From NCBI GenBank assembly GCA_011364925.1, contig RDOA01000003.1, forward strand, positions 72,924 to 136,923: a DNA stretch of 64,000 nt. The letters are read 5' to 3'. The notes beneath the pieces were generated by a model, which saw nothing but the letters and a program-made list of their open reading frames with translations, made no database searches and had not been told where the DNA came from. The position numbers were made by a program, and so were the translations under genes. Shown here in pieces: positions 1 through 35,119 of the stretch. The stretch is from Promethearchaeota archaeon (GTDB taxonomy: Archaea > Asgardarchaeota > Lokiarchaeia > Sigyniarchaeales > SOKP01). Position 1 is the stretch's first letter, and every line of letters begins with the position of its first letter.

Positions 1-180
1 TCTTACTATGCTCTTCAAAAAATGAGTAGTTTCATTAGTAACCTCCAAAAAAATACTGATATTTGGAATAAATTACTTAGACATTTTCGAGCAAATCAGA
101 CTATTCAATTGAAAGATTTTCCTTTAATCGATTCCTTAATTACAAATACTTTTCTCGCAGGACATACATCTTCGAAATAA
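1..180 (+). CDS. 3' end (last 59 codons) of a further TPR/longin-like family paralog, truncated by the window edge
   Basis: Frame 1 is open from base 1 to TAA at 178-180. The translation SYYALQKMSSFISNLQKNTDIWNKLLRHFRANQTIQLKDFPLIDSLITNTF... aligns with the C-termini of ORFs 932..2626 and 2782..4464. Confidence 0.75.
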   Translation, partial: SYYALQKMSSFISNLQKNTDIWNKLLRHFRANQTIQLKDFPLIDSLITNTFLAGHTSSK

Positions 181-240
181 TTTTTAACTATGTTTTATTG
201 CGTTCGAATTATTCCCAATTTTCAAGCTGTATCATAGAGA

Positions 241-321
241 ATTGAAACTATCGTGAAACTATCGCGAGCTCAATTATAAATGCAACAATACCTCAAAATC
301 TATTTAGTCATCGTAAAGATG
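241..321 (+). promoter_or_regulatory. Conserved promoter/leader cassette, copy A: tandem TGAAACTATCG x2 (243-264), TATA-like ATTATAAA (273-280), conserved leader GTCATCGTAAAGATGAT with ATG at 319
   Basis: Near-identical to 4502-4582 and related to 8064-8161. The spacing from TATA start to the conserved ATG is 46 nt in all three copies. Confidence 0.6.
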
Positions 322-359
322 ATAAAATTGAGATTTCAATAAAAAAGCGGATTCAGAAA

Positions 360-755
360 ATGACTGAAATTAAAAAATTTACAAAAATCGTGCTTATAGT
401 GGATGCTATTCTTTGGTTCATGTTTACGATATTCCTTATATTTATTTTTGATATGACTATGAATCCTGAGGGTTGGACAAACCCCTATCTCCCAAAATTA
501 TTTGGGGGTGTTATTTTTGTATCTGCTATTTTCGCAATTTTAATGCTTCGTAAAAAAGAATGGGAAGAAATTAAACTGTTATTTGCGTATTTTATAGGGT
601 TACTAATATCGACATTATTCTTTGAAGCTACTGTATTTGCTATTGTAGGATTTGCTTTTGGAACTCTAACGATTATGGTACATTCATTTAATATAACAGT
701 AGAGGCTGTACTTCTAGCGCTTGCAATTATCAGCTGGATAAAACAAAGAGTATAA
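360..755 (+). CDS. small integral membrane protein (about 4 hydrophobic helices), unknown function
   Basis: 131-aa ORF with four long hydrophobic segments. It lies downstream of cassette copy A. The antisense ORF 485..760 looks like a shadow ORF. Confidence 0.6.
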   Translation: MTEIKKFTKIVLIVDAILWFMFTIFLIFIFDMTMNPEGWTNPYLPKLFGGVIFVSAIFAILMLRKKEWEEIKLLFAYFIGLLISTLFFEATVFAIVGFAFGTLTIMVHSFNITVEAVLLALAIISWIKQRV

Positions 756-851
756 AGCAAAAATCAAAATTAAATTTAAAAAATTTTTTTCTTTTTTTGA
801 CATTGAATATCCATTCTAATAGGTATTAGAATTTTAATAGCAGATTGGTGA

Positions 852-931
852 ACATTATATTTAAAACCCAATTTAGCTTATATTAGTAATTATATCCAAA
901 AATGTCTTAAATTAAAATGATTTTTGAGTAG
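852..931 (+). promoter_or_regulatory. Promoter/5' region of the TPR-longin gene, duplicated at 2703-2781
   Basis: ACATTATATTTAAAAC...AATTAGCTTATATTAGTAATTATA...GATTTTTGA.TAGATG is shared almost base for base with 2703-2781. TATA-like AATTATAT sits at 888-895, about 44 nt before the ATG. Confidence 0.55.
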
Positions 932-2626
932 ATGTTTTTTCTTAATCCTGAGATTAAAGGTTTGAATTCAGTTAGGCAACTTATGGAAGATGGGAAAATG
1001 CAGAAAGCCTTCCAAATTGTTTTAGAATTAGAACAAGGAGACGATCTTTCTCCCAAAGAATTACTCTCGTGTAAGCTCGTAAAGGCTAATCTATTACGTG
1101 TAATAGGAAATTATCCAGACGCAATTGAAATTGCTAAGGAAATTTTTCGAGAATTTCAAAAACAAGGTGATTTAGTATCATCGTTAGACGCTTTACTTAT
1201 TCAAGCATATACCTATATGATAACGGTTAATTTAACTCAAAGTGAACATCTTATTCCACAGATAGAAAATTTATTCAAAGCAATTAAAGAACCATTATCA
1301 ATAGATCTCAAAGAAAGAGAATCTTTTTTCTTAAGAATAAAAGCTGCTATTCATTCTCTCAAAGGCGAATTTCAACGATCCTTAGAACTTAACAAAAAAG
1401 CTTATGATCTAGCTAAAGAGACTGGAAACACAGTATTGATTGTTGCGAGTCTTAATAATACTGCTAATGATTATTTCCATATGAAAGAATATGACATGGC
1501 AATAATGTATGGTAAACAAGCTATTAAGAATGATAGTCTAAATTTGGCAGTTGCGTACGCTACCTTAATTGAAACTTATGTCAGCAAGGGAGACATTAAA
1601 GAAGCGATAATTTATCTCGATCGTTTGCATGAATTTTCAGAGAATTACGATTCTAAATGGAATAGAACTTTATATTCCCTAAATAAAGCTTTGATATTAA
1701 AATCAAGTCTCCGAGCAAGAGATCGTATTAAAGCAGAAGATCTATTTAAAAAAATAGCTTTGGACAGTACTGTAGCTGGTACAATGCGGATTGATGCGAT
1801 TATATATTTATGCGATTTATACTTAACTGAACTTCGGATAACTCACGACCCAGAAATAATAAACGAGATTCACCCATATATTCAAGAGTTATTAAGTATT
1901 GCTAAAAAACAAGATTCACATTTATATTTAGCCGAAACTCTACTTTTGCAAGCAAAACTTTCACTATTGACTTTAGATATAAAAGAAGCTAAACGATTTT
2001 TAACTCGAGGCCAAAAAGTAGCAGAATCACATGGTATTAAACAACTAGCAATGAGAATCTCAAACGAACACGATTATTTACTCGGTCAAGAAAAACTCTG
2101 GAATAATTTCAAGCAATCAAAAGTTCCTTTCTCTGAACGCTTGGAACTCGCTGGTTTGAATCAACAGATGGATTATATGACAAAAAGGCAAATATTCACT
2201 ATTCCACAACAACCAGACGAGGAACCGGTGCTCCTTTTATTGCTTTCAGAGGGGGGAGTACCCTTTTTCTCCCACACTTTTGTAGAAGATCGATCCTTCA
2301 AATCGCATCTTTTTGGTGGATTTCTAACCACTATTGATTACTTTATTCGAGAAATGTTTTCTGAAGGATTAGATCGAGCAATCTTTGGAGATTACACACT
2401 TGTTATGAAGTCTCTAACACCTTTTTTTGTTTCCTATATATTTAAAGGTAATTCTTATTACGCTCTCCAAAAAACAGATTATTTTATTGAATGTATTAAG
2501 AAAGATGAGCATATATGGGCAAAACTACTAAAATATCTTCAAGCAAACCAGTCAATTCAATTAAAAGACATCCCTCAACTTGATTCTTTGATAATAGAAA
2601 TCTTTATCCCAGAAAAATCTGTATGA
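932..2626 (+). CDS. TPR-repeat protein with a conserved C-terminal longin/roadblock-like alpha/beta domain (family paralog 1)
   Basis: 564-aa ORF. The N-terminal two thirds are helical TPR-like repeats (e.g. LNNTANDYFHMKEYDMAIMYGKQAI). The C-terminal ~130 aa (nt ~2219-2626, EEPVLLLLLSEGGVPFFSHTF...LFGGFLTTIDYFIREMF...AIFGDYTLVMKSL.PFFVSYIFKG...) has a beta-beta-alpha-beta-beta-beta-alpha pattern. Confidence 0.85.
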   Translation: MFFLNPEIKGLNSVRQLMEDGKMQKAFQIVLELEQGDDLSPKELLSCKLVKANLLRVIGNYPDAIEIAKEIFREFQKQGDLVSSLDALLIQAYTYMITVNLTQSEHLIPQIENLFKAIKEPLSIDLKERESFFLRIKAAIHSLKGEFQRSLELNKKAYDLAKETGNTVLIVASLNNTANDYFHMKEYDMAIMYGKQAIKNDSLNLAVAYATLIETYVSKGDIKEAIIYLDRLHEFSENYDSKWNRTLYSLNKALILKSSLRARDRIKAEDLFKKIALDSTVAGTMRIDAIIYLCDLYLTELRITHDPEIINEIHPYIQELLSIAKKQDSHLYLAETLLLQAKLSLLTLDIKEAKRFLTRGQKVAESHGIKQLAMRISNEHDYLLGQEKLWNNFKQSKVPFSERLELAGLNQQMDYMTKRQIFTIPQQPDEEPVLLLLLSEGGVPFFSHTFVEDRSFKSHLFGGFLTTIDYFIREMFSEGLDRAIFGDYTLVMKSLTPFFVSYIFKGNSYYALQKTDYFIECIKKDEHIWAKLLKYLQANQSIQLKDIPQLDSLIIEIFIPEKSV

Positions 2627-2702
2627 TCTCAATTTGATAGAATCTCAAAAAATGTTTTAATAGGGATATGTTCTTTAAAAAATTGAATATAATCATAAGT
2701 TC

Positions 2703-2781
2703 ACATTATATTTAAAACACAAATTAGCTTATATTAGTAATTATAACCAAAAAGTTTTGGTTTAGCGAGATTTTTGATTAG
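2703..2781 (+). promoter_or_regulatory. Duplicated promoter/5' region of the second TPR-longin gene
   Basis: Near-identical to 852-931. AATTATAA sits at 2739-2746, about 43 nt before the ATG at 2782. Confidence 0.55.
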
Positions 2782-4464
2782 ATGATTCATTTTGATGATA
2801 AAGAACTGATTGAAATCAGTCAAATTATAGAAGAGGGCAAACTGAAGGAAGCTTACCAGGCTATTTTAGAATTGGAGCAAAAAGATGATCTATCTAATAA
2901 AGAAAAAATCTCATGTAAACTCATTAAAGCTAATCTTTTCCGAGTTATGGGACAATATTTGGAATCTATTGAATATGCTGAAACAGTTTTTCAAGAATCT
3001 CAAAAAGGAGGAGATATTCTTTCATCTTTCGATGCTTTAACCATTCAAGCGCATTGCTATACATATATGGTTGACATAATTAAAAGTGAAGAACTTTACA
3101 CTCAAGCACAAGAGATATTTAAAATAATAAAAGAAAGATTTTCCATAGATCTAAGGGAGAGAGAATCTTTCTTGGTAAGGATAAAAGCTGGAATTAACTT
3201 TTTTAAGGGAGATATTAAATCTTATATAAAATTAAATGAGGAGGCTTATGACCTCGCAAAAAATACAAAGAGTGAAAACCTAATTGCTTCTAGCCTTAAC
3301 AACCTTGCTCAAGGTTACTTTCATTTAAAAGAATATGACAAAGCCATACAGTATGCTAAAGAAGCCGTTAAGATTGGAAAATCTTTTACTTTAGCTTATG
3401 CATTAGGAACATTAATTGATATATATCTCGGGATGGGCGATATTAACGAAGCAAAAGCTAATCTTGGAATCTTTCATGATCATGCCAAAGAACTTGGTAC
3501 TGAAAGATACAAAACTCTCTATAATTACTCTAAAGCATCAGTTTTAAAAGCTAGTCTAAGAGCCAGAGACCGTATCAAATCTGAAGATATCTTCCTGAGT
3601 ATTGCATTGGATCATGCAAGACCTAGCGAACAAAGGATTGATGCGATTCTTAGTTTATGTGATTTATACATAACTGAACTTCGGATAACTAATGACCCCG
3701 AAATAATAAACGAGATTCACCCATATATTCAAGAATTGTTAAATATTGCTAAAAAACAACATTCACGTTTATATTTAGCCGAAACATTACTTTTGCAAGC
3801 AAAACTTTCACTACTAACTTTAGATATAAAAGAAACTAAACGATTTTTAAATCAAGGTCAAAAAATAGCAGAATTGTACGGTATTAAACAACTGGCAATG
3901 AGAATCTCAAATGAACATGATAATTTACTCAGTCAAGAAAAAATTTGGGAGAATTTCAAGCAATCAAAAGTACCCTTCTCCGAACGTTTGGAACTCGCCG
4001 GTTTGAATCAACAGATGGATTATATGACGAGAAGGCGAATATCTGTTATCCCACAACAACCCGGCGAGGAACCAGTGCTGCTTTTATTGCTTTCAGAGGG
4101 AGGAGTCCCTTTTTTCTCATACACATTTGGAGAAGATCGATCCTTTAAATCGCATCTTTTTGGTGGATTTTTAACCACTATCGATTACTTTATTCGAGAA
4201 ATGTTTTCTGAAGGATTAGATCGCGCAATCTTTGGAGATTACACTCTTGTCATGAAGTCTGTGACGCCATTTTTCGTTTCCTATATATTTAAAGGCAATT
4301 CTTATTACGCTCTCCAGAAAGCGGATAATTTTATTGATACTATTAAAAACAACGAGCAACTTTGGAAAAAGCTGCTTAAATATTTTCAAGCGAACCAAGC
4401 AATTCAATTAAATGACATCCCTCAACTTGATTCTCTAATAAATGAGGTCTTTATAACAAAATAA
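2782..4464 (+). CDS. TPR-repeat protein with C-terminal longin/roadblock-like domain (paralog 2, tandem duplicate of 932..2626)
   Basis: 560-aa ORF colinear with 932..2626. The 3' ~800 nt are about 90% identical at the nucleotide level by hand alignment, while the 5' half is much more diverged. Confidence 0.85.
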   Translation: MIHFDDKELIEISQIIEEGKLKEAYQAILELEQKDDLSNKEKISCKLIKANLFRVMGQYLESIEYAETVFQESQKGGDILSSFDALTIQAHCYTYMVDIIKSEELYTQAQEIFKIIKERFSIDLRERESFLVRIKAGINFFKGDIKSYIKLNEEAYDLAKNTKSENLIASSLNNLAQGYFHLKEYDKAIQYAKEAVKIGKSFTLAYALGTLIDIYLGMGDINEAKANLGIFHDHAKELGTERYKTLYNYSKASVLKASLRARDRIKSEDIFLSIALDHARPSEQRIDAILSLCDLYITELRITNDPEIINEIHPYIQELLNIAKKQHSRLYLAETLLLQAKLSLLTLDIKETKRFLNQGQKIAELYGIKQLAMRISNEHDNLLSQEKIWENFKQSKVPFSERLELAGLNQQMDYMTRRRISVIPQQPGEEPVLLLLLSEGGVPFFSYTFGEDRSFKSHLFGGFLTTIDYFIREMFSEGLDRAIFGDYTLVMKSVTPFFVSYIFKGNSYYALQKADNFIDTIKNNEQLWKKLLKYFQANQAIQLNDIPQLDSLINEVFITK

Positions 4465-4501
4465 CTTGTTTGATCTCTATTTAGGTAATTGATTAAAAAT
4501 A

Positions 4502-4582
4502 ATTGAAACTATCGCGAAACTATCGATAGCTCAATTATAAATGAGATTTTACCTCCAGATTTAATTAGTCATCGCAAAGATG
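4502..4582 (+). promoter_or_regulatory. Conserved promoter/leader cassette, copy B: GAAACTATCG x2 (4505-4514, 4516-4525), ATTATAAA (4534-4541), leader GTCATCGCAAAGATGAT with ATG at 4580
   Basis: Aligned with copies A and C. Here the conserved ATG is the start of ORF 4580..5332. Confidence 0.65.
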
Positions 4583-5332
4583 ATTACTTTAAATCTAAAC
4601 ACAAGAGAGTTGATAAAAATTAATAGATCAAAAATAGTTAAAAATATAACATTACTTGCGACTATCGGAATTTTACTTCTGGTGTTTTCCACATCAGTGC
4701 AAGGTTGGGGTGGATATAGGAGTCGAATCAATATTAGACCTATAGAGGATTGGAAAGGAGAAGATGTTGTAGGCTGGGCAGATCCAGAATCTGGGTTAGT
4801 TATCCATCCTCAAGCTGTCGAATGGGTCCCCGCTGATCCAGAGAGTCCTAACTTTCCATTTACTCTCTTAGATTGGGAGCGAAAACCCATATGGGAGTGC
4901 GAATATTGGGGAACGATTCTGGAACGAGAATTAGATGATCAAAACACATTAATCTCTATTTATATTTATGTAAAGGAAGTTCCCTTCATGATCTTCACTC
5001 TTACTGGAGCAGATTATATCTATTATCCCCCACTCTATTATGGTGTGATGCAATACTATTTCCAATGCAAGATGCAATTCAATACAGAGTCCCTTTATAA
5101 TATATTTGAAGCTGATGGAAAAATTCCTGCTCTCAATGAAATATTTGGTGCATCCTACGGTTTTTGGCCTTATCCCGAAGAACCAGTTCCACTTGTGACA
5201 TACATGCACATTTTAGGAGTGGGTGAAATAACTGAAGGAGGAGATGGAACTGTATATCTCCATCAACTTGGGATTTTTAACACAGAAATAGGAGATTATG
5301 ATTATCCGTACGAAACGGTAGTCGTTAAGTAG
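4580..5332 (+). CDS. secreted or membrane-anchored protein, unknown function (N-terminal signal/anchor, W/Y/P-rich body)
   Basis: 250-aa ORF. The N-terminus MITLNLNTRELIKINRSKIVKNITLLATIGILLLVFSTSVQG looks like a signal peptide. I recognise no family. Confidence 0.7.
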   Translation: MITLNLNTRELIKINRSKIVKNITLLATIGILLLVFSTSVQGWGGYRSRINIRPIEDWKGEDVVGWADPESGLVIHPQAVEWVPADPESPNFPFTLLDWERKPIWECEYWGTILERELDDQNTLISIYIYVKEVPFMIFTLTGADYIYYPPLYYGVMQYYFQCKMQFNTESLYNIFEADGKIPALNEIFGASYGFWPYPEEPVPLVTYMHILGVGEITEGGDGTVYLHQLGIFNTEIGDYDYPYETVVVK

Positions 5333-5373
5333 AGAGCTTTAGGGCGAGGTTTTATATATTTAAATTACATAAT

Positions 5374-5441
5374 AGAACATGGAGGAATTGGATTAGAAAT
5401 TAAATTTCTACCAATAAACCTCCGTTCTATTTTTTTTTTTT
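5374..5441 (+). terminator. Hairpin plus T11 tract downstream of ORF 4580..5332
   Basis: AGAACATGGAGG (5374-5385) pairs imperfectly with CCTCCGTTCT (5419-5428). An inner palindrome TAGAAATT/AATTTCTA is present, followed by 11 T at 5431-5441. Confidence 0.55.
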
Positions 5442-5534
5442 AATTCCTTAGAAAAGGTAAAATTAATTCAATTGAATAAATATCGAATTCAATTAACTAA
5501 AGTTTTATATTAGGCTATATCTAATTTTACATTA

Positions 5535-6089
5535 ATGACTAATTCTTCTGAATTTGGCTTTAAAATATCTATAATCGGTGATGGCGGGGTTGGTAAGACC
5601 TCCCTAATCAAAAAGTATACAATGGGAACTTTTGAGAAGGATTATGTTAAGACGATAGGTGCTCAATTCTCTAGATATGATCAAGAAATCGATGGAGATC
5701 TAATTAATTTAATATTTTGGGATATCGCAGGTCAGGATGATTTTAAATTCCTGCATCCTTTATTTTATAAAGAGAGCCGAGCTGCTATTATTGTATATAG
5801 TCTTGAAGAAAATGATTTAGGTAATGATAGCTACAAGCATATAATCAATTGGTATAACGAATTAAAGAAATATTGTGGAATTATTCCTGTGGTTATTATT
5901 GCCAATAAAATTGATTTAATTAATCAATCTGAGTTGGATGAGTTTGCAATTCAAAATTTAGTCAAAGAAAATAACTTTCTTGGATATTTTATTACTTCTG
6001 CAAAAACAGGCGAGGGAGTAATAGATGCTTTTAACGCAATTATCAAAAACTTATACTATAAGTATAAAGATTTATCTAGCTCTCAGTAG
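5535..6089 (+). CDS. Rab/Ras-like small GTPase
   Basis: G1 GDGGVGKTS, G2 YVKTIGAQF, G3 WDIAGQ, G4 NKID, G5 TSAKTG. 184 aa, with no C-terminal Cys (no prenylation box). Confidence 0.9.
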   Translation: MTNSSEFGFKISIIGDGGVGKTSLIKKYTMGTFEKDYVKTIGAQFSRYDQEIDGDLINLIFWDIAGQDDFKFLHPLFYKESRAAIIVYSLEENDLGNDSYKHIINWYNELKKYCGIIPVVIIANKIDLINQSELDEFAIQNLVKENNFLGYFITSAKTGEGVIDAFNAIIKNLYYKYKDLSSSQ

Positions 6090-8004
6090 CGTGATTTAAA
6101 GGTATCAAAGATCTATGTTCCTCTATCTCTGCGAGAAAAAGGTCTACAATTGCTAACCATTTATTTTTTGATTCCAAATCGCTTATAATTTTGCTTGTTA
6201 ATTCTTTTCCTCTCTTAAGATTTTGTACAGCTAATTCAAAATTTTCGAGAGCTGTATAACAAATTCCAATTTTGATATAAGTCTGATAGATAAACCAATC
6301 GTTAGAATCAATTTCTATGGCTTTTTGGAATTCATTTATCGCTTCTTCGTATTCTTTAAAGTTTATTAAAATTTCTCCGAATGTATCGTGGAAAATTCCA
6401 TTTTCTGGTTCTTTTTTTACGAGTTCCCGAAGAAGTTCCAATGCTTCTTGTTCTTTATCTAAATAAGATAACCAATACGCTTTATAATTATGAAGCAGAG
6501 TATTGTTTGGATATTTTTCGATTAAATCTTCAATAATTTTTAAGCCTTCTTCTAAGTTTTTATCTTTTTTAAGAGTATAAGCTTTTTTTATCGTAATATC
6601 TATCTCTTTTTTAGGAAATATCTCGAACATGTTTTCTAGTACCATTAAAACATCGTTATACTGATTAAAATAGAGTAAAATTCGTACTTTTGAATTGTAT
6701 AAATCGTAATTCTTTGGACTTAATTCAATTTCATTTTCTATTTCTTTAATTTTCTCTTTGTATTGAGATTCAAATGTTTCAGAATTCTGCGATTGCATTA
6801 TCTCCGTCATGTTCTGCCAAATAATTCCTTCTAGTTTATCGTATGTCTCTACTAATTCTTTTTTTATCTCAATTTTATATGCTAGATATTCCATATACTC
6901 TGGTAAAAATTCTCTTAATGGTTCCTCGAAATCCTTATGAAATAAAAATTGACATACTTCTTCGAGAATATCGTCAATCATCGAATTCATACTTCCTAAT
7001 TCAGCAAATTTTTCTAAATATTTGTTTGCTGCTATATGTTCTTCCGTAATAGCTCGAAGAATTTTCTCTAATTTTTCGTCAAAATGGAAATAGTACCGTT
7101 TCTTGGGGGAAATATCTAAAATAAAAAACTTTAAGTCGTAGAATTCGCTTTCTACAATCTCATGTACCCAATAATCAAGCATTCTCTTCTCTATTTTGTA
7201 AAATCTCGAAAAATCCTCAAAAGATAAGTAATCAGGATAAAAATCGGGATGATTTATTGAAATAAAGAGCAAAATTTTGTAAAAATCCTCCTCATCTTTT
7301 AAGATTGAGTTAACTTTTAAATAATCTAATTTTAAAACCTTATTGAGAAATCTAAATTTTACACGATCGTCAATAATATTGAACTTATCGAAGAAATGCG
7401 ACGCTTTTACAGTGATTTCGTCTATTCGCTTTCTTTCTTCTTCTAAAATTGTTTGTCTGTCTAAATTATAATTTTGTAGAATCCTCGAATATTCTATTTT
7501 CCCTAATTGAGTAATGATATATCTTTTGTTTTCTCTGACGATAAATCCCTTTTGAATTAATAAACTTAGAGTTTTTGATAAAGAGGACTGATTTATAGAG
7601 AAAGGTTTTTCAAGAAAATCAGACCTTTTACAAAACCCATTATTGTACACCATCCAAATAATCCAGTGGGCATAATTTCGCCCTCTCTTCAAAATGACAT
7701 CAGGGGGGAAACTTAGTTTTCGTTCCCTGGTTCTTTCTCTTGATAATTCTTGAAATTTTTGTTCCCCTTCTGGAGTTATCTGGTATTGTCCTCTAGAAAG
7801 TTTCTCTACGAAGCCTTTGAGGATTAATTTTGTTAAATGACGGGAAATTGTAGATATGGGAATTTCAAGCGGTTTTTGTTCGAAATAGGACCATTCACAA
7901 CTTTCATTATTCTTTAACATCCAAAGAATAATATGGTCATAGTTTGGCCTTTTCAGTTTAGAGGAATTAAGAATCTCATCGGAAGGATAATTTATTTTGC
8001 TCAT
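6076..8004 (-). CDS. protein with two N-terminal winged-helix DNA-binding-like domains and C-terminal TPR repeats
   Basis: An internally duplicated N-terminus (ILWMLKNNESCEWSYF...ISRHLTKLILKGFVEK and IIWMVYNNGFCKRSDF...LSKTLSLLIQKGFIVR) resembles MarR/PadR-type wHTH. The C-terminus has TPR-like repeats (AIEIDSNDWFIYQTYIKIGICYTALENFELAV). The 3' end overlaps the GTPase 3' end by 14 bp. Confidence 0.75.
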   Translation of the reverse strand: MSKINYPSDEILNSSKLKRPNYDHIILWMLKNNESCEWSYFEQKPLEIPISTISRHLTKLILKGFVEKLSRGQYQITPEGEQKFQELSRERTRERKLSFPPDVILKRGRNYAHWIIWMVYNNGFCKRSDFLEKPFSINQSSLSKTLSLLIQKGFIVRENKRYIITQLGKIEYSRILQNYNLDRQTILEEERKRIDEITVKASHFFDKFNIIDDRVKFRFLNKVLKLDYLKVNSILKDEEDFYKILLFISINHPDFYPDYLSFEDFSRFYKIEKRMLDYWVHEIVESEFYDLKFFILDISPKKRYYFHFDEKLEKILRAITEEHIAANKYLEKFAELGSMNSMIDDILEEVCQFLFHKDFEEPLREFLPEYMEYLAYKIEIKKELVETYDKLEGIIWQNMTEIMQSQNSETFESQYKEKIKEIENEIELSPKNYDLYNSKVRILLYFNQYNDVLMVLENMFEIFPKKEIDITIKKAYTLKKDKNLEEGLKIIEDLIEKYPNNTLLHNYKAYWLSYLDKEQEALELLRELVKKEPENGIFHDTFGEILINFKEYEEAINEFQKAIEIDSNDWFIYQTYIKIGICYTALENFELAVQNLKRGKELTSKIISDLESKNKWLAIVDLFLAEIEEHRSLIPLNHATES

Positions 8005-8063
8005 GATAGTTGAAAACTTAGTCTTATGATTAATTATGAATATTTATATTTATATCTATTTTT

Positions 8064-8161
8064 CGAAACTTCCACTTTTTTTCGGAATTTCCGTGGAATT
8101 ATCGGAAGCTTAATTATATATGCAAATTTATCTCAAGATTTAATTAATCATCGTAAAGATG
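8064..8161 (+). promoter_or_regulatory. Conserved promoter/leader cassette, copy C (diverged): GGAATTTCCG/GGAATTATCG (8084-8104), ATTATATA (8113-8120), leader ATCATCGTAAAGATGAT with ATG at 8159
   Basis: Same architecture and the same 46-nt TATA-to-ATG spacing as copies A and B. Confidence 0.55.
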
Positions 8162-8192
8162 ATAAAATCTAATATAACTGAAAAAAAAAGAG

Positions 8193-8741
8193 TTGATTAA
8201 AATTAATAGAACAAAATTAGTACCAAAATTAATACTAGTACTCTTAGTATTTACCACTATAACTGGCTTTGCATTTACTTTTGTTGTAGCTAAAGGAGAT
8301 CAAAGGGCAAGTAGATTATCTTTTACAGCTACAGAAACTATGATATGGCCAGATGGTTGGGTTCCTATAGGTGATCCATGGGGTGATGGTAAGTTCATAC
8401 ATCAGATGTACTATAAAAAAGCAATTCTTGATGGCACAATTGAGGAAATAGGGGACTTTTCAGGGTATGATGAATTATATTTGCATGTTAAAATGGACCC
8501 AAATACCTTTGAGGTTATAAGCATTGGTAAAGTAACGATGTATATCTTTTGCGATAACGGACTAGAAGGAACTTTTTATGGATCTGTTATTGCGAAGGGT
8601 ACAGCTGGCTTTGGTCCTTTCGACGGTAAATATACGTTGCAAGGAGCTGGAGGATTTGAAGGAATGAAGCTTTTTGGTATAGTCTGGCTTGAAAGTGGTC
8701 TAGTAAACGGACTTTCTGGTACAATCTTAATCCCAAATTAA
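8193..8741 (+). CDS. secreted protein, unknown function (TTG start as drawn; the conserved ATG at 8159 is out of frame by one base across an A9 tract)
   Basis: 182-aa ORF. The N-terminus (M)IKINRTKLVPKLILVLLVFTTITGFAFTFVVAKG is signal-like and matches ELIKINRSKIV of ORF 4580. Confidence 0.65.
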   Translation: MIKINRTKLVPKLILVLLVFTTITGFAFTFVVAKGDQRASRLSFTATETMIWPDGWVPIGDPWGDGKFIHQMYYKKAILDGTIEEIGDFSGYDELYLHVKMDPNTFEVISIGKVTMYIFCDNGLEGTFYGSVIAKGTAGFGPFDGKYTLQGAGGFEGMKLFGIVWLESGLVNGLSGTILIPN

Positions 8742-8765
8742 AATCAAGAATAAAGGTGAATTCAA

Positions 8766-9854
8766 ATGCAAAAATCAATGCAAAGAAAACTATTGTTGAT
8801 GTTTCTCCTTGGTTCAATATTTTTCGTAATTCCTATTGCGAGCTCTAATGGAACTACATTCACTCCAAAGAAGGTTGCAGAACAATCTCTGTCCGGTGCT
8901 ACAACTCACGTTTATTTGGATGGAGATTACGCATTCATGGGAGTTGGAACATCCGGTCTGGCCATCGTTGATATTTCCCACCCGAAAAATCCAGGAACCC
9001 CGGTCTATAGAGACACCTCCGGCAGGGCGTATAACCTTTGGGTAGAGGGAGGCTACGCCTATGTGGCAGATTTTGATAAGGGTTTAGCTGTCATTGATGT
9101 TTCCGACCCAACAAACCCAGGACCTGCTACGCACGTACTAACAACCCAAGCTTGTGGTGATGTATGTGTTAGTGGAAATTACGCTTATGTGGACGGTGGT
9201 GGCTTAGCGGTTATCGACATTTCTGACCCAGTGCATCCGAACCTGGTCGTAACCAAACCTTTAACTGGAATTCCGTATGGTCTTTGCGTGAGTGGAGAAT
9301 ACGCATACATAGCAACTGCTGATACTGGTTTGGCGATCGTCAATATTTCCGATCCGACCAATCCAGGAACTCCCATTTACGAAGATACGACCGGAACTGC
9401 GTGGGATGTGTGTGTAAGTGGCGGTTACGCCTATGTAACAACCGGTAGTACCGGTTTAGCGATTATCGATGTTTCCGACCCGACAAATCCGGGAACGCCT
9501 GTTTATAGAGACACGACAGGAACTGCATATTTTATTTTTCTAAACGGAAGTTACGCCTATATAGCGGCTGATACTGGAGGCGTGGCGATCATTGATGTAT
9601 CCGACCCGACAAATCCGGGAACGCCGACCTATATAGATGTGGAAGGTCAAGCAATTGATGTGTATGTCAGGGGAGACTATGCTTATGTGGCGGATGAACA
9701 TTACGGCTTGAAAGTCTACGATCTTTTCTATACTACTCCAGAACCTGGTATTCCATTCGATAATTTCTACTTATTATTTATTGGGTTTAGCGTACTATGC
9801 TTAGTATTCATCGTTTCAAAAAAACGCAAAATTACTAGTGAATCTCAAAAATAA
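8766..9854 (+). CDS. LVIVD-repeat (beta-propeller) surface protein with C-terminal TM anchor
   Basis: About 8 repeats of G(L/V)A(I/V)(I/V)D(I/V)SDPTNPG...Y.DT.G.A..V.V.G.YAYV. There is an N-terminal signal peptide, and the C-terminus is PEPGIPFDNFYLLFIGFSVLCLVFIVSKKRK. An AGGTGA Shine-Dalgarno motif precedes the ATG. Confidence 0.85.
   Translation: MQKSMQRKLLLMFLLGSIFFVIPIASSNGTTFTPKKVAEQSLSGATTHVYLDGDYAFMGVGTSGLAIVDISHPKNPGTPVYRDTSGRAYNLWVEGGYAYVADFDKGLAVIDVSDPTNPGPATHVLTTQACGDVCVSGNYAYVDGGGLAVIDISDPVHPNLVVTKPLTGIPYGLCVSGEYAYIATADTGLAIVNISDPTNPGTPIYEDTTGTAWDVCVSGGYAYVTTGSTGLAIIDVSDPTNPGTPVYRDTTGTAYFIFLNGSYAYIAADTGGVAIIDVSDPTNPGTPTYIDVEGQAIDVYVRGDYAYVADEHYGLKVYDLFYTTPEPGIPFDNFYLLFIGFSVLCLVFIVSKKRKITSESQK
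8950..9720 (+). repeat. Coding tandem repeats (~120 bp period) encoding the LVIVD blades
   Basis: Recurrent DNA strings, e.g. GATGTTTCCGACCCGACAAATCCGGGAACGCC at ~9469 and ~9589, with diverged copies near 9097 and 9343. Confidence 0.8.
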
Positions 9855-9875
9855 ATCAAAAATCTAATAATTAAT

Positions 9876-9909
9876 GTTAACACCTAATTGGTGTTAAACA
9901 AATTTTTTT
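9876..9909 (+). terminator. Perfect 9-bp hairpin plus T7
   Basis: GTTAACACC (9876-9884), loop TAATT, GGTGTTAAC (9890-9898), then T7 at 9903-9909. It lies 22 nt after the stop of ORF 8766..9854. Confidence 0.65.
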
Positions 9910-10170
9910 CTTATCTTTTACTGGATTTATAATGCATTTTATCATTTATTTTCAGATTTTATTAATCTTAGAATTCATTTACTAATTCAAGTGATATATA
10001 TGATTTTTAACGAAGTGAATAAATTGAACTTTATAGGGAAGATACATTAAGGTTATCTCTCTTTTCAAATCAAAAATCAATTACATTTAAAATTATAACA
10101 AACATAATATTTTAATTAAATATTATACAATAATGTATCTTTTTCAATCCAATAATTTAGGGACAGGGTC

Positions 10171-12246
10171 TTGTCTCATTCAAAACCTCAAGAATTGGTT
10201 CAGGTAAAACGACTCATTGATCTCGTAAGATTTGATGAAGCTAACCAATTAATTAAAGAGTTTGAGGAAAAACAAGGTCATGCTCTGTATGATGAAGTAC
10301 TATGTAATCTTTTCATGTGTGACATATTATATTACCAAGGATTATATGATGAGGTTATCAAGCTTGCGGAACAAACCTATAAAGAGAGTTTAAAATTAGG
10401 AAAAAACCTACTGTCAGTTGATGCCTTACTAAGAATGGCAGGTGCGTTATCTGGGCATCGTCAATGGGAAAAATTCTGCGATAGGATTAAGCAAGGAGAA
10501 GAGCTGTTAAAGTCATTGACACATGAATTACCAGAAGAATACAAACGAAGAAAGGCTTATTTAGCTCAACTGAAAGGAGATTATTACGAAGTAAAAAATA
10601 AGTTAGATAAGTCAATACAGCAGTTTGAAATCAGTATATCATTGTACGAAGAACTTGGCAATAAAATAGAGATTGTTTGGCCTATTTTAGGAATTGCCAC
10701 CGTGTTTTATTGGCATAAAGGCGATTTTGACGGTGCTTTAAAATATTTGGAGCGAGGGCTAGCAATCGCTAAGGAAAGCGGAAATATAAGGTGTATCGGG
10801 GCTTGTCTTAACCAGATGGCATATGTTCATTTTCTTAAAGGTGAGTTTGATCGCAGTATTATGCTTTTTGAGAAGAGCTTGACAATCTTCGAAGAAACTA
10901 ACCTTGACCTCTGGAGAGCAAGAATTTTTTGTCTTCTAGGGGAATGTTATGCAATGAAAGGGGAAATTAATCGTAGCATTAGATTTTTCGAACAAAGTTT
11001 AGAACTTTGGAAAAAAATAAAACATAAACCCATGATGGCTGATATCTTGAATAATGTATCTGAGTGTTATAGAATGAAAGGAGAATTTGAACATGCGTTA
11101 GAGTGTATAGAACAATCAATGGAGTTAAATCATGAGTTGGGAAACTTGGAAAGATTAGCTAATAATCACCTCTATTTTATTAAGATTTTAATTGATAGGG
11201 GTGAACTTACACGAGCATGGAGCTCTCTTCGTGATTTGGAGCAATTGAACAATCAATTAAAAGACAAAAAAATAAATTATTATTATCTATTTGTTAAAGC
11301 TTTACTATTGAAAACAAGTATGCGAGCCCGTAATAGAGTAAAAGCTGAAGAAATTTTCAATCAACTCCTCGAAGAGGAGTTATATATGGATTTAGATTAT
11401 GAATTGAATATGGGATCTCTTTTAAATTTATGCGAATTACTCCTTATTGAATTGCGCCTGATTAACGATGAAGAAATACTAGACGAAATTAATCCTCTAC
11501 TTGTTCAACTATTGAACAGCGCTGAAAAGTCAAATTCATACTGGATACTTGGTGAAACCTATCTGCTGAGAGCAAAACTCTCACTTTTAACCTTTGATGT
11601 TAAGAAGGCACAACTATTTTTAACCCAAGCTCAGAAGATCGCAGAATCGCACGGGATTAAACGACTAGCAATGCAAATTTCATATGAACACGATGAATTG
11701 CTTAAAAAAGCAAAAGTTTGGGAGAATTTAAAAGAGACAGAAGCACCATTATCAAAACGTTGGGAATTAGCTGGGTTAAACGAACAAATAGAGAAAATGG
11801 TTTGGAAACGAATAGTAGAATCTCCTGAAATCTCTGAAGAAGACCCCGTTATGATATTAATCTTAACTGAGGGTGGTAATCTTTTGTTCTCACAAAAATT
11901 TGTATCGGATTTTTCTTTTGAAGAAGATCTTCTGGGGAGCTTTTTAACTACGACACATTACTTTATTAATGCCGCCTTTTCTGAGGGCCTTGATAGAGCT
12001 GTTTTTGGTCAATATACTCTTCTTATGACGCCCCTTCAACCGTTTTTAATATGTTACATCTTTAAAGGGCACTCCTATTCTGCTCAATTTAAAATTACAA
12101 GTTTTATAGATTCTATACAAAAGGATAGAGATGTTTGGCAAACCTTACAAAAATTCTTCCAATTGAGCAGATCTGTTCACATAAACGATGTACCGATGCT
12201 AGATTCATTGATATCAAATATCTTTACTAAGAAAGTTTCTCAGTAG
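10171..12246 (+). CDS. TPR-repeat protein with C-terminal longin/roadblock-like domain (paralog 3, longer TPR array)
   Basis: 691-aa ORF with a TTG start. It has many TPR-like units (e.g. LNQMAYVHFLKGEFDRSIMLFEKSL). The C-terminal domain EDPVMILILTEGGNLLFSQKF...LLGSFLTTTHYFINAAFSEGLDRAVFGQYTLLMTPLQPFLICYIFKG is homologous to paralogs 1 and 2. Confidence 0.85.
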   Translation: MSHSKPQELVQVKRLIDLVRFDEANQLIKEFEEKQGHALYDEVLCNLFMCDILYYQGLYDEVIKLAEQTYKESLKLGKNLLSVDALLRMAGALSGHRQWEKFCDRIKQGEELLKSLTHELPEEYKRRKAYLAQLKGDYYEVKNKLDKSIQQFEISISLYEELGNKIEIVWPILGIATVFYWHKGDFDGALKYLERGLAIAKESGNIRCIGACLNQMAYVHFLKGEFDRSIMLFEKSLTIFEETNLDLWRARIFCLLGECYAMKGEINRSIRFFEQSLELWKKIKHKPMMADILNNVSECYRMKGEFEHALECIEQSMELNHELGNLERLANNHLYFIKILIDRGELTRAWSSLRDLEQLNNQLKDKKINYYYLFVKALLLKTSMRARNRVKAEEIFNQLLEEELYMDLDYELNMGSLLNLCELLLIELRLINDEEILDEINPLLVQLLNSAEKSNSYWILGETYLLRAKLSLLTFDVKKAQLFLTQAQKIAESHGIKRLAMQISYEHDELLKKAKVWENLKETEAPLSKRWELAGLNEQIEKMVWKRIVESPEISEEDPVMILILTEGGNLLFSQKFVSDFSFEEDLLGSFLTTTHYFINAAFSEGLDRAVFGQYTLLMTPLQPFLICYIFKGHSYSAQFKITSFIDSIQKDRDVWQTLQKFFQLSRSVHINDVPMLDSLISNIFTKKVSQ

Positions 12247-12346
12247 CATTATCTTTTTCTGTTAGTTTAATTTGCCAAAATTTTATATTAAACTAAAACC
12301 AATCTAACATTAAATACTTATAATTTGATTTAGATATAGAAATCTA

Positions 12347-12901
12347 ATGAAACCCTTTGAGGAATTTCGATTTAAAATTGTAATCTTAGGAGATGGTGCA
12401 GTAGGTAAAACATCCCTAATTCAGAAATTCACTAAAGGGGTATTTGAAAAAGAATATGTAAAAACAATCGGAGCTCAGTTTTCAAAATACAACAAAAAGA
12501 TTGATGGAGATATAATTAGATTAATATTTTGGGATATAGCAGGTCAGATAGATTTCAATTTTCTAAATCACTTATTTTATAAAGAAGCTAAAGCAGCAAT
12601 TATAGTATTTAGTCTCGAAACTAATGATTTGGGTCAAAAAAGTTTCATCCATATAACAAACTGGTATAAGGAATTAGAAAAGTATTGCGGTACTATTCCT
12701 GTTGTTACATTTGCGAATAAAGTTGATTTGGTGGATAAAAATAGATTAAATGAGTCTAAAATCCAAAAATTAGCCAAGGAAAATAACTTCCTTGGATATT
12801 ATATCACCTCTGCAAAAACAGGAGAGGGCGTAATAGAAGCTTTTAATGCTATTATTGATAAATTATATTTTAAATATAAAAAATTATCATCAATTGATTG
12901 A
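12347..12901 (+). CDS. Rab/Ras-like small GTPase (paralog of 5535..6089)
   Basis: GDGAVGKTS, YVKTIGAQF, WDIAGQ, NKVD, TSAKTG. 184 aa, colinear with the first GTPase, and 100 bp downstream of TPR-longin paralog 3. Confidence 0.9.
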   Translation: MKPFEEFRFKIVILGDGAVGKTSLIQKFTKGVFEKEYVKTIGAQFSKYNKKIDGDIIRLIFWDIAGQIDFNFLNHLFYKEAKAAIIVFSLETNDLGQKSFIHITNWYKELEKYCGTIPVVTFANKVDLVDKNRLNESKIQKLAKENNFLGYYITSAKTGEGVIEAFNAIIDKLYFKYKKLSSID

Positions 12902-32379: not shown

Positions 32380-32381
32380 AC

Positions 32382-34844: not shown

Positions 34845-34879
34845 ATTTAAACCAAAATAAAATCAAGGAGAGAAAAAAT

Positions 34880-35119
34880 ATGAATTTTGACCAAGAATTA
34901 AATGTCTGCGGATTAGTCTGTCCCGTTCCAGCGCTTAAAACCAAAAAACAATTAATGAAGATGCGCCCTGGAACCGTGTTAAAGGTAATAACAGACTATA
35001 AACCTGCAAGTGAATCTGTTCCAAGAGATTTAGCTAAACAAACTAAGCACAAACACTTAGGAACAGAATTTCTCGAAGACGAAGAACAGTGGTATATGTA
35101 TTTTGAAGCTGTAAAATAG
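34880..35119 (+). CDS. second TusA/SirA-like sulfur carrier protein
   Basis: CGLVCPVPALKTKKQLMKM (CPxP motif). 79 aa, and a GGAGAG Shine-Dalgarno motif lies upstream. Confidence 0.75.
   Translation: MNFDQELNVCGLVCPVPALKTKKQLMKMRPGTVLKVITDYKPASESVPRDLAKQTKHKHLGTEFLEDEEQWYMYFEAVK

Follow-up and report, generated by a model that had tools for sequence, protein, structure and literature searches.

Gene content of the locus

The window, meaning the whole 64,000-nt stretch of contig RDOA01000003.1 that was analysed, contains paralogous genes for tetratricopeptide repeat (TPR) proteins with a longin-like C-terminal domain (hereinafter TPR-longin), together with genes for two Rab-like GTPases and several further features, as follows.

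1..180, + strand: 3'-terminal part of a fourth TPR-longin paralogue (final 59 codons and stop; the rest lies beyond the window edge)
360..755, + strand: m, 131 aa, four predicted transmembrane helices (four hydrophobic segments)
932..2626, + strand: TPR-longin ORF1, 564 aa, of a short ~563-aa subfamily (Pfam TPR_12/TPR_MalT; AlphaFold2; Foldseek)
2782..4464, + strand: TPR-longin ORF2, 560 aa, tandem duplicate of 932..2626
4580..5332, + strand: p, 250 aa, N-terminal membrane anchor and β-rich domain; facultative, between TPR-longin gene and GTPase gene
5497..5533, + strand: BRE/TATA-like element, CTAAAGTTTTATATTA ... CTAATTTTACAT, directly upstream of GTPase 1
5535..6089, + strand: GTPase 1, Rab-like, 184 aa (Pfam Ras 9e-40; cassette-specific clade)
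6076..8004, − strand: W, 642 aa, two winged-helix DNA-binding domains and C-terminal TPRs (Pfam HTH_45/MarR/TrmB/HTH_34 and TPR)
10171..12246, + strand: TPR-longin ORF3, 691 aa, of a ~656-aa subfamily
12275..12311, + strand: BRE/TATA-like element, CCAAAATTTTATATTA ... CCAATCTAACAT, 57 bp upstream of the GTPase 2 start codon
12347..12901, + strand: GTPase 2, Rab-like, 184 aa (Pfam Ras 7e-40; clade shared with GTPase 1)

All ORFs of the original prediction, the four TPR-longin ORFs included, are present at its coordinates and in its frames. The prediction had taken these four for paralogues, and they align over their entire length. The paralogues consist of a variable TPR array, a conserved helical linker and a C-terminal domain of ~140 aa (residues ~430-564 in ORF1). 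The peptide encoded by 1..180 corresponds to the C-terminal helices of ORF1, ORF2 and ORF3, and 15 columns of that alignment are invariant. Identity over the full-length alignment is 68% between ORF1 and ORF2 and 39% between ORF1 and ORF3, whose subfamily mostly has no neighbouring GTPase in other loci. In the Pfam scan, the paralogues match TPR families only (TPR_12, TPR_MalT), all N-terminal, with zero matches in the C-terminal domain.

Predicted fold of the C-terminal domain

The longin fold is used by eukaryotes to turn Rab GTPases on and off. ORF1 residues 337-564 were modelled by AlphaFold2 with pLDDT of 89.6 and pTM of 0.86, and in this confident model the C-terminal domain adopts a longin/roadblock-superfamily fold with longin topology. 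Specifically, the elements E95-103, E108-113 and H118-142 form the β-β-α part and are followed by E146-149, E152-159, E162-169, H172-188, H190-201 and H212-222, giving the order β-β-α-β-β-β-α-α-α, in line with the β-β-α-β-β-β-α pattern originally read from the sequence. In the Foldseek comparison with the PDB, nearly all matches listed are longin/roadblock proteins or domains with probabilities near 1, including LAMTOR2/3, AP-1/2/3 σ, sedlin, ζ-COP, the VAMP7 longin domain, Mon1-Ccz1 and a Loki RagA-like roadblock domain. The best E-values belong to Ragulator scaffolding subunits, while TM by target reaches 0.72 for AP-1/2/3 σ and is 0.66 for sedlin.

Pfam, NCBIfam and PDB sequence models are all below threshold for the C-terminal domain, and profile searches of PDB sequences with the TPR-longin family found nothing. 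The only recurrent Pfam signal, also sub-threshold, comes from Fuz_longin_1, which models the first longin domain of FUZ/MON1/HPS1. It appears in 28 of 119 members (best E 0.002), and the family consensus matches it with E of 0.009 in a colinear alignment that covers profile positions 3-84 of 125 from β1 onward; longin-family sequence matches score 16-17 bits, whereas the Pfam cut-off is 26.1. The weak Fuz_longin_1 signal is consistent with the original guess of a Mon1/Ccz1-type longin domain. The protein has one longin domain rather than the tri-longin arrangement of Mon1/Ccz1.

Family size and sequence conservation

The TPR-longin proteins constitute a large unnamed Asgard-archaeal family, with 1232 clusters at 50% identity and the same architecture in nearly all of them; rare members have the C-domain fused to TIR or RING domains. 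Database names are only 'hypothetical protein' or 'tetratricopeptide repeat protein', and the papers searched contain no description of the family, consistent with the earlier impression that it has no name. The contrast drawn originally between a variable TPR array and a conserved C-terminus extends to 110 full-length relatives: the TPR part, where whole TPR units are inserted or deleted, averages 0.30-0.45 in pairwise identity, against 0.50-0.72 for the last ~270 residues. Three places hold the near-invariant residues, namely the β1-β2 loop (E-G-G, 114-117 of 117 members), α1 (FE.H.FGGF ... FSEGLDR) and the junction of β5 with α2 (KG.SY.A). The FSEGLDRA Arg occurs in 116 of 117 members; the Pro of G-G-x-P is present in 65 of 117 (56%) and replaced by Leu in ORF3. 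In Mon1-Ccz1 and TRAPP, α1 is the Rab-binding face (PMC5216073).

The Rab-like GTPases and their linkage to TPR-longin arrays

GTPase 1 and GTPase 2 share 70% identity. The nearest solved structures of both are Rab23, Thor-Rab and Rab5, and the closest PDB sequences of GTPase 2 are Rab23 (2e-31) and Thor-Rab (6e-29). Direct reading of both sequences bears out the claim of intact motifs, namely GDG[GA]VGKT, KTIGAQF, WDIAGQ, NK[IV]D and TSAK, with the catalytic Gln kept, a Ras-like Gly where Ras has Gly12, and no C-terminal Cys.

The gene order in the window is TPR-longin, TPR-longin, the 250-aa gene and GTPase in one place, and TPR-longin and GTPase in the other, where GTPase 2 starts 100 bp 3' of 10171..12246. 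This is the pairing originally proposed (2782..4464 with 5535..6089, one gene between them, and 10171..12246 with 12347..12901). Gene neighbourhoods were compared across 74 related Asgard loci containing 89 TPR-longin arrays. A GTPase starts ≤500 bp downstream on the same strand in 44 of the 89 arrays, compared with 1 of 59 on the upstream side, which served as control (Fisher p = 1.8e-11), and a chance expectation of 0.7% per slot, so the supposed enrichment of GTPase genes beside the family is observed and strong; 42 arrays, about half, have no adjacent GTPase. The modal array-to-GTPase gap is 100-118 bp. All 44 partner GTPases, whether they follow TPR-longin or p genes, belong to one ~183-aa clade with >50% identity. 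Order, strand and the ~100-118-bp spacing are preserved where the proteins have diverged to ~50% identity, in MAGs labelled Promethearchaeota, Hod-, Hermod- and Thorarchaeota.

Distances between C-terminal regions co-vary with distances between the adjacent GTPases (r = 0.73, Mantel p = 0.001), a co-variation that could also come merely from joint duplication and inheritance of neighbouring genes. Tandem TPR-longin copies form no conserved A/B pair and have no position-specific orthologues, which argues against an obligate heterodimer of the Mon1/Ccz1 type.

Promoter-like elements and the wider cassette

A conserved BRE/TATA-like motif accompanies each of the partner GTPase genes and is found before GTPase genes only, and T-runs precede these genes. 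The element at 5497..5533 matches the consensus of 37 spacers between TPR-longin and GTPase genes, while that at 12275..12311 is an exact match to the core motif. With a conserved promoter-like element of its own, the GTPase gene probably does not depend on being co-transcribed with TPR-longin.

The cassette is larger than the originally described module of TPR-longin and GTPase. Its order is W< m> C(1–5)> [p]> G>, where C is the TPR-longin gene, G the GTPase, W a double-wHTH/TPR protein, m a 4-TM protein and p a membrane-anchored β-rich protein. The recurrent first gene is m, with 32 homologues in 23 of 75 loci, usually directly upstream of the C array. Homologues of p number 17, in 16 loci, every one within a cassette; the p of the window is 100% identical to EAX91_02085 of a Candidatus Lokiarchaeota MAG, and its AlphaFold2 model (pLDDT 87) has no significant fold match in the PDB. 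W, with 45 homologues in 36 loci, is convergent on GTPase 1 in the window; across the loci it lies upstream in divergent orientation for 21 of 46 arrays and follows 11 of 38 slot GTPases in convergent orientation. It is likely a transcription regulator of the cassettes.

A proposed GTPase-control module

The observations as a whole are best explained by an Asgard-specific small-GTPase module in which the longin domain binds and controls its cognate GTPase (probability about 0.68). The most likely predicted function of TPR-longin is to bind the GTPase as a regulatory platform, with the variable TPR array as adaptor. Longin or roadblock dimers are the GTPase platforms of Mon1-Ccz1, TRAPP, Ragulator and MglB. 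In the proposed mechanism, the fast-evolving TPR solenoid would act as adaptor or sensor for variable partners, and the helical linker and single longin domain would form the constant output half. The longin domain probably dimerises by its β-sheet edge, with itself or a neighbouring paralogue, and its highly conserved α1 face would bind the ~183-aa Rab-like GTPase encoded just downstream and thereby control its nucleotide state. Several tandem TPR variants would feed one GTPase, transcribed from its own conserved promoter, with the divergently encoded W as likely regulator of the module; the 4-TM m and the anchored, β-rich p suggest a location at the cell membrane. GEF-like nucleotide exchange is the preferred activity, given that the closest family by sequence is the catalytic first longin domain of MON1/FUZ/HPS1, with GAP activity or GTP-state-specific effector binding nearly as likely. 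The module offers a concrete pair of putative regulator and GTPase that could be tested in the prokaryotes most closely related to eukaryotes.

Comparison with known systems

TPR-longin resembles Mon1-Ccz1 and the MON1/FUZ/HPS1 proteins in its longin fold and Rab-like GTPase partner, in its only recurrent profile similarity, which is to their catalytic first longin domain, in having α1 as its most conserved element and in the conserved preceding helix, an α0-like linker. Unlike Mon1-Ccz1, it has one longin domain instead of three, an N-terminal TPR solenoid, no conserved A/B heterodimer pair and only sub-threshold sequence similarity, and it is archaeal and lineage-specific.

MglB-MglA is a bacterial and archaeal operon of a roadblock GAP and a small GTPase. 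Similarly, a gene for a putative longin/roadblock-superfamily regulator lies immediately upstream of a small-GTPase gene on the same strand in the cassette. Unlike MglB (~160 aa), TPR-longin has longin topology, with C-terminal helices, within a 560-690-aa TPR fusion; unlike MglA, the cassette GTPase is Rab-like, with the catalytic Gln and its own promoter-like element. The best structural superpositions are with AP σ, ζ-COP and TRAPP sedlin/Bet5/Trs23 (TM by target 0.62-0.72), which share the order β-β-α-β-β-β-α-α but are stand-alone ~140-aa proteins of eukaryotic coat/tether complexes with no detectable sequence similarity to TPR-longin. The Asgard operon of LAMTOR1-like roadblock, Rab-like GTPase and DENN proteins (Liu et al. 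2021, bioRxiv 10.1101/2020.10.19.343400) is likewise a conserved neighbourhood that joins a Rab-like GTPase to candidate longin/roadblock-superfamily regulators, whereas the TPR-longin module has neither DENN nor LAMTOR1-like protein, and the TPR fusion, tandem amplification and W/m/p partners are specific to it.

Alternative explanations

A GAP function of the longin domain is possible, though doubtful; it would parallel the longin GAPs FLCN, NPRL2 and SMCR8 or, in its end result, MglB-MglA, with the FSEGLDRA Arg as a putative arginine finger beside the E-G-G-x-P β1-β2 loop. This sequence-based reading draws on the near-invariance of the Arg and E-G-G, on a partner GTPase with GDG[GA]VGKT and DIAGQ, and on the slow intrinsic hydrolysis of Thor-Rab (PMC10933270). 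The defining marks of longin GAPs are a Gly-Pro before β2 and an Arg finger, and Asgard archaea are known to have related longins (PMC12290439); like FLCN-FNIP, GATOR1 NPRL2-NPRL3, C9orf72-SMCR8 and these Asgard look-alikes, TPR-longin has a β1-β2 loop rich in Gly and, close to it in sequence, an invariant Arg. However, it has GGxP, with an incompletely conserved Pro, instead of the strict adjacent G-P motif, it has no DENN domain, and its partner is Rab-like rather than Rag/Arf. Its weak Pfam matches include GEF-type Fuz_longin_1 and none of the FLCN, NPRL2 and SMCR8 families.

TPR-longin proteins might instead be effectors or scaffolds, comparable to the SRX longin domain of SRα, which binds SRβ-GTP, or to Ragulator, which binds Rags. 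They would bind the GTP-form GTPase and recruit TPR-bound clients, leaving the nucleotide state unchanged. The longin fold and the GTPase linkage serve this reading equally, many variable TPR adaptors on one GTPase fit a multi-effector hub, and the top Foldseek E-values point to scaffolding subunits; we nevertheless regard it as rather unlikely. The present data fit it as well as they fit a regulator role, but the polar residues E, R, S and K on the face presumed to bind the GTPase are conserved to an extreme degree that would sooner be expected at a catalytic interface.

An immune-like, diversifying sensor or conflict system, with variable TPR receptors for foreign or changing ligands, a constant C-domain for signalling and a GTPase switch, is improbable. 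The 1-5 tandem copies, variable repeats with TPR-unit insertions and deletions, MalT-like TPRs as in STAND sensors and rare TIR or RING fusions would fit such a system, but no PADLOC defence model matched except generic TPR and wHTH, and the standard cassette has no nuclease, NADase or other effector. Moreover, the surroundings are housekeeping genes, cassette synteny is stable in many Asgard lineages and GC content carries no island signature.

It is very improbable that adjacency is meaningless, the C-domain being an oligomerisation module and the GTPase an independent neighbour carried by segmental duplications: although the GTPase has its own promoter-like element and is preceded by T-runs, half of the arrays have no GTPase and Asgard GTPases generally lie outside operons with longin or roadblock genes (Tran et al.), the conservation of order, strand, spacing and partner clade described above would be unexpected unless selection maintained it.

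Architecture of the TPR-longin proteins

All genes named in the original prediction are present in the ORF listing of the window. Three TPR-longin genes are complete, and the fragment proposed as a fourth paralogue translates into the last 59 residues of such a protein.

TPR-longin and Rab-like GTPase genes of the window
1..180, + strand: fragment of a TPR-longin gene, last 59 residues
932..2626, + strand: ORF1, TPR-longin protein, 564 aa
2782..4464, + strand: ORF2, TPR-longin protein, 560 aa
10171..12246, + strand: ORF3, TPR-longin protein, 691 aa
5535..6089, + strand: GTPase 1, 184 aa
12347..12901, + strand: GTPase 2, 184 aa

The three complete paralogues can be aligned end to end, with an identity of 68% between ORF1 and ORF2 and 39% between ORF1 and ORF3, and they differ chiefly in the number of TPR units. 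In Pfam, the N-terminal two thirds match TPR families only (TPR_12 and MalT-like TPR), and the last ~140 residues have no match. NCBIfam gives nothing specific for the C-terminal part, and comparison of the C-terminal domain with PDB sequences returned chance-level matches only, both with the single sequence and with a 119-sequence profile. Exact look-up of the ORF1 and ORF3 proteins found no database record.

A search with the linker and C-terminal domain retrieved 122 relatives. Their organisms, where given, are Asgard archaea or unassigned marine-sediment metagenome, and their database names are ‘hypothetical’ or ‘tetratricopeptide repeat protein’. These names are generic and no description of the family or the cassette was found in the papers searched, in line with the earlier remark that the architecture is not a named family; an asCOG may nevertheless already cover it. 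The predicted division into a variable TPR array and a conserved linker and C-terminal domain is borne out by mean pairwise identities of 0.30–0.45 for the TPR part, where whole units are gained or lost, versus 0.50–0.72 for the linker and longin domain.

Among 1.8 billion representatives, the C-terminal domain profile matched 1232 clusters (50% identity) at E ≤ 1e-3 and 850 at E ≤ 1e-10, nearly all of them proteins of 550–720 aa with the domain at the C terminus. The family comprises three subfamilies: the main one of ~649 aa, mostly with a GTPase gene downstream; one of ~563 aa, containing ORF1 and ORF2; and one of ~656 aa, containing ORF3, whose usual site is behind a TusA gene that closes an Hdr/Mvh-like cluster, without a GTPase. 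When the two most divergent members were used for a bridging search, it reached eight further unnamed Asgard proteins and no annotated longin family; one of the eight is a divergent, fragmented Heimdall copy with no GTPase neighbour.

Rare members carry an added domain, namely a TIR domain following the longin domain, a RING finger at the C terminus or a MIT domain at the N terminus (P0265, L063:1533–3920, L016:3–941, P0216 and P0171). Two apparent stand-alone short forms of the C-terminal domain (P0019 and P0101) were rejected, being 3' halves of split TPR genes.

The C-terminal domain is predicted to adopt a longin fold

The longin fold has five antiparallel strands in one sheet, the order β1-β2-α1-β3-β4-β5-α2-α3 and no N-terminal helix within the domain. 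Roadblock/LC7 domains (MglB and LAMTOR2/3) have the order α1-β1-β2-α2-β3-β4-β5(-α3), with the N-terminal helix packed on the sheet. Residues 337–564 of ORF1 were modelled with AlphaFold2 on the alignment of the 122-relative search (mean pLDDT 89.6, mostly >85 in the secondary-structure elements; pTM 0.86). The model contains six linker helices followed by β-β-α-β-β-β-α-α-α. Specifically, in model numbering, strands span 95–103, 108–113, 146–149, 152–159 and 162–169, and helices span 118–142, 172–188, 190–201 and 212–222. The β-β-α-β-β-β-α order is the same as that first read from the hydrophobic pattern.

Longin domains differ from roadblock domains in having their extra helices C-terminal rather than N-terminal (PMC10933270). 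The modelled domain follows the longin order, because its extra helices, two or three as in longins, are C-terminal and not N-terminal; the linker helix at 73–82 may, however, pack like roadblock α1.

Foldseek matches in the PDB are mainly longin/roadblock proteins and domains: LAMTOR2/3 (Ragulator), the σ subunits of AP-1, AP-2 and AP-3, sedlin, ζ-COP, the VAMP7 longin, Mon1-Ccz1 and a Loki RagA-like roadblock domain. Target-normalised TM scores reach 0.72 for the AP σ subunits and 0.66 for sedlin. LAMTOR2/3 have the lowest E-values, yet their alignments are shorter and their TM scores lower (0.49–0.58) than those of the longins. At the level of the predicted structure, we regard the longin/roadblock fold class as established, as had been proposed from the sequence.

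The sole recurrent non-TPR Pfam family among the members is PF19036 (Fuz_longin_1), the model for the first longin of FUZ, MON1 and HPS1. It matches 16 of 123 members, and 28 of 119 in an alignment of the C-terminal domain only, with a best E of 0.002. The family consensus matches it at E 0.009–0.016, colinearly from query position 18 (the first strand) to profile position 84 of 125. No curated longin profile matched significantly; Fuz_longin_1 was the best, at 16–17 bits versus a Pfam cut-off of 26.1. Because these scores are below threshold, a particular kinship to Mon1/Fuz/HPS1 is only a lead.

TPR-longin arrays are linked to one clade of Rab-like GTPases

Both 184-aa proteins belong to the Ras family (Pfam Ras, about 1e-40) and are 70% identical to each other. 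As originally described, the G1–G5 motifs are intact (GDG[GA]VGKT, KTIGAQF, WDIAGQ with the catalytic Gln, NK[IV]D and TSAK). The C termini, ...YKYKDLSSSQ and ...FKYKKLSSID, contain no Cys and hence no prenylation motif, for which reason the proteins are called Rab-like and not Rab. Their nearest PDB sequences are Rab23 (2e-31), Thor-Rab (6e-29) and Rab5 (1.5e-27); Ran is also matched (3e-23).

Scanning a single genome from each species gave 99 encoding places, of which the best 80 resolve into 74 distinct loci. The 73 loci with a named taxon are all from Asgard MAGs, mostly Promethearchaeota/Lokiarchaeia, with some Hod-, Hermod- and Thorarchaeota. ORFs were called in all loci and then searched with the window proteins. 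The TPR-longin genes form same-strand tandem arrays of 1–5 genes. A Ras-family GTPase lies on the same strand ≤500 bp downstream in 44 of the 89 distinct arrays with downstream sequence, at a very regular gap of mostly 100–118 bp, versus 1 of 59 arrays in the upstream control (≤500 bp; Fisher p = 1.8e-11). Judged by how densely the remaining GTPase genes occur in the loci, a slot would hold a GTPase by chance in 0.7% of cases. The pairing seen in the window therefore extends to other genomes.

The 40 GTPases that follow a TPR-longin gene, and four that follow a 250-aa protein gene (p, below), form one clade (~183 aa, >50% identity), and the other GTPases of the loci fall into separate groups. 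Distances between TPR-longin C-terminal regions correlate with those between the adjacent GTPases (r = 0.73, Mantel p = 0.001). The correlation fits cognate pairs, and joint duplication of neighbours would yield the same.

Organisation of the cassette

Clustering all ORFs of the loci against one another revealed recurrent neighbours. With C for a TPR-longin gene, G for the cassette GTPase and arrowheads for gene direction, the common order is W< m> C(1–5)> [p]> G>, often repeated head to tail. The window has the order m> C> C> p> G> W< ... C> G>.

Recurrent neighbours in the window
6076..8004, − strand: W, 642 aa, two winged-helix DNA-binding domains and C-terminal TPRs (Pfam)
360..755, + strand: m, 131 aa, four hydrophobic helices, predicted transmembrane
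4580..5332, + strand: p (p250), 250 aa, N-terminal membrane anchor and β-rich domain

W has 45 copies in 36 of 75 loci, lying divergently upstream of 21 of 46 arrays and convergently after 11 of 38 slot GTPases; in the window its 3' end overlaps GTPase 1 by 14 bp. W is a candidate regulator of the cassette. The m gene (32 copies, 23 loci) lies directly upstream of TPR-longin arrays and has a weak DUF2975 match only. The p gene (17 copies in 16 related loci) always lies within TPR-longin/GTPase cassettes. AlphaFold2 models p with confidence (pLDDT 87, rising to about 95 within the domain); a known fold was rejected, as the best PDB match has a probability of 0.14 despite this confidence, and the modelled β-rich domain may be a new fold.

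In many loci, the cassette GTPase gene has a gene of a distinct second GTPase family (~197–220 aa) immediately behind it (G>G>; for example L021:6593–7186, L066:9408–10061, L071:9466–10086 and L074:9425–10018); this second family is absent from the window. At several of these loci, a conserved trio of ORF clusters 6, 8 and 9 comes next, arranged 6< 8> 9<.

A promoter-like element precedes the GTPase gene

The 37 aligned spacers between TPR-longin and GTPase genes share a highly conserved non-coding block, c-AAAATTTTATATTA, followed by ~8 variable bases and CTAAT[CT]TTACAT. The window contains two copies that match the 37 spacers of the related loci (L001–L074).

Promoter-like elements of the window (cAAAATTTTATATTA, ~8 nt, CTAATyTTACAT)
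5497–5533, + strand: upstream of GTPase 1
12275–12311, + strand: upstream of GTPase 2

Judged by the known archaeal promoter consensus, the block looks like a BRE/TATA box plus initiation region, and the CTAATyTTACAT box could be an operator. A relaxed core motif occurs 100 times in ~0.9 Mb; 53 occurrences precede GTPase genes, mostly 59–60 bp from the ATG, and none precedes a C, W, m or p gene. The conserved block itself precedes the genes of no other family. The window has only two core matches, at 5499–5512 and 12277–12290, upstream of GTPases 1 and 2. The ATG of GTPase 1 directly follows the element, which suggests a leaderless transcript. The GTPase is probably a separate transcription unit kept beside the array, not merely the last gene of an operon, because it has its own promoter-like element and because T-runs lie 3' of the genes upstream of it. 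A scan of bacterial σ70/terminator motifs was uninformative (65 matches versus 60 expected), and an Rfam scan of the window found nothing.

Proposed function and comparison with known systems

Longin and roadblock domains are recurrent platforms for GTPases, as in MglB-MglA, Ragulator-Rag, TRAPP, Mon1-Ccz1 and the longin GAPs. The best-supported reading of the TPR-longin protein is a putative two-part regulator of the neighbouring Rab-like GTPase, an interpretation that has support as regards fold and genomic association. The constant longin module would bind and regulate the adjoining GTPase as the output, and the variable TPR module would link this output to differing partners, so that several TPR-longin variants would converge on one GTPase.

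Four segments of the longin domain are near-invariant. The β1-β2 loop carries [ST]-E-G-G, the first part of α1 carries F-E-x-H-x-F-G-G-F, the α1/β3 junction F-S-E-G-L-D-R-A-x-F-G, and β5/α2 K-G-x-S-Y-x-A. The Rab-binding surface of Mon1-Ccz1 and TRAPP is formed by the α1 helices of a longin dimer, with a contribution from the preceding helix α0 (PMC5216073).

Within the two-part regulator reading, GEF activity is slightly favoured because of the Fuz_longin_1 signal. The TPR-longin proteins may equally be effectors or scaffolds that bind the GTPase, a role equally compatible with the data. GAP activity of the longin domain is suggested by an invariant Arg (the Arg of FSEGLDRA, in 116 of 117 members), a possible counterpart of the catalytic arginine finger of longin GAPs, beside the β1-β2 loop with its Gly residues. 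It is also suggested by the GTPase itself, which has the catalytic Gln and, where Ras has Gly12, likewise a Gly. However, the known longin GAPs (FLCN, NPRL2, SMCR8 and C9orf72) are marked by a strict Gly-Pro motif, the two residues adjoining, where β2 begins (PMC12290439), and this motif is not present in the family: the loop reads E-G-G-x-[P/L], and the Pro, which 65 of 117 members (56%) have, never adjoins the Gly. A conflict system, to which tandem variable sensors and rare TIR fusions might point, has no support, with nothing specific in PADLOC and a stable housekeeping context.

The likeness to Mon1/Ccz1-type longins in the original prediction holds in part: Fuz_longin_1 is the recurrent, sub-threshold match, but there is one longin domain per protein and no A/B pair. 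Tri-longin RabGEFs (Mon1, Ccz1, Fuzzy, Inturned, HPS1 and HPS4) have three consecutive longins per subunit, whereas the TPR-longin protein has a single C-terminal one and is otherwise TPRs and helical linker. The RabGEFs are also obligate heterodimers of distinct paralogous subunits, and the tandem TPR-longin copies are not so sorted: copies at positions −1, −2 and −3 share sequence clusters. An A/B pair of the Mon1/Ccz1 kind was rejected, since position-specific clades are absent. Similar to MglA/MglB, the gene of a roadblock-superfamily regulator lies directly upstream on the same strand (44/89 arrays); unlike MglA, the cassette GTPase is outside the MglA family and has its own promoter-like element.

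Asgard archaea have dozens of Ras-superfamily GTPases and dozens of longin/roadblock proteins, and to our knowledge nobody knows which serves which. In Asgard genomes, the roadblock/longin superfamily accounts for 130 asCOGs; an operon of the LAMTOR1-like/Rab-like/DENN kind has been proposed. In the cultured strain MK-D1, GTPase genes are generally outside operons with roadblock, longin and TRAPPC3 genes (Tran et al. 2024; PMC10933270), and matching regulators to GTPases from the genome is therefore difficult. The cassette is a clear exception to this pattern, being tied by conserved synteny to one clade of Rab-like GTPases. Brought together in this module are a cryptic longin domain missed by current profiles, the new TPR-linker-longin architecture in tandemly amplified copies, a GTPase partner drawn from one clade and with its own promoter-like element, and the recurrent partners W, m and p. 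The module yields a defined protein pair together with candidates for membrane partners and for a transcription factor, all directly testable.

It is possible, and in our view rather unlikely, that the family is an archaeal sister of the catalytic first longin of the tri-longin RabGEFs and a genuine exchange factor for the neighbouring GTPase. If so, a dedicated longin-type RabGEF-Rab pair, equipped with membrane partners and with exchangeable TPR adaptors for cargo or signals, would have been present in Asgard archaea ahead of eukaryogenesis. Should the activity be of the Mon1-Ccz1 type, a major class of eukaryotic Rab activators would have its origin in archaea.

Other features of the region

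Two further genes lie between the two cassettes.

Genes between the cassettes
8193..8741, + strand: p182, 182-aa anchored protein without Pfam match
8766..9854, + strand: LVIVD-repeat β-propeller protein, 362 aa, signal sequence and C-terminal anchor

The N termini of p182 and p250 both have an ‘(M/L)IKINR.K.V’ motif ahead of a hydrophobic helix. p250, p182 and family 5 are all small anchored proteins, but kinship between them was rejected by hhalign.

At 28676..35119 and 35327..36928, the window has an Hdr/Mvh/FrhB-like oxidoreductase cluster with TusA at its end, and a sulfatase next. In at least five other genomes (L025, L030, L034, L039 and L052), TusA is followed by a TPR-longin gene of the ORF3 subfamily, without a GTPase. 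The genes downstream of that block (MetRS and others) are at 55–61 kb in the window. Given the sulfatase after TusA and the position of the MetRS block, the region has been rearranged.

EAX91_02085, from a MAG of Candidatus Lokiarchaeota, is 100% identical to p of the window. The G+C content of the window is ~32%. A 1399-aa ORF at 48333..52532 (− strand) has no Pfam match at E ≤ 1e-4. Right-handed β-helix/NosD-like proteins (Pfam) are encoded at 19413..21071 and 21839..23452 (− strand), and the ORF at 62494..64000 (+ strand) belongs to the same sequence cluster.
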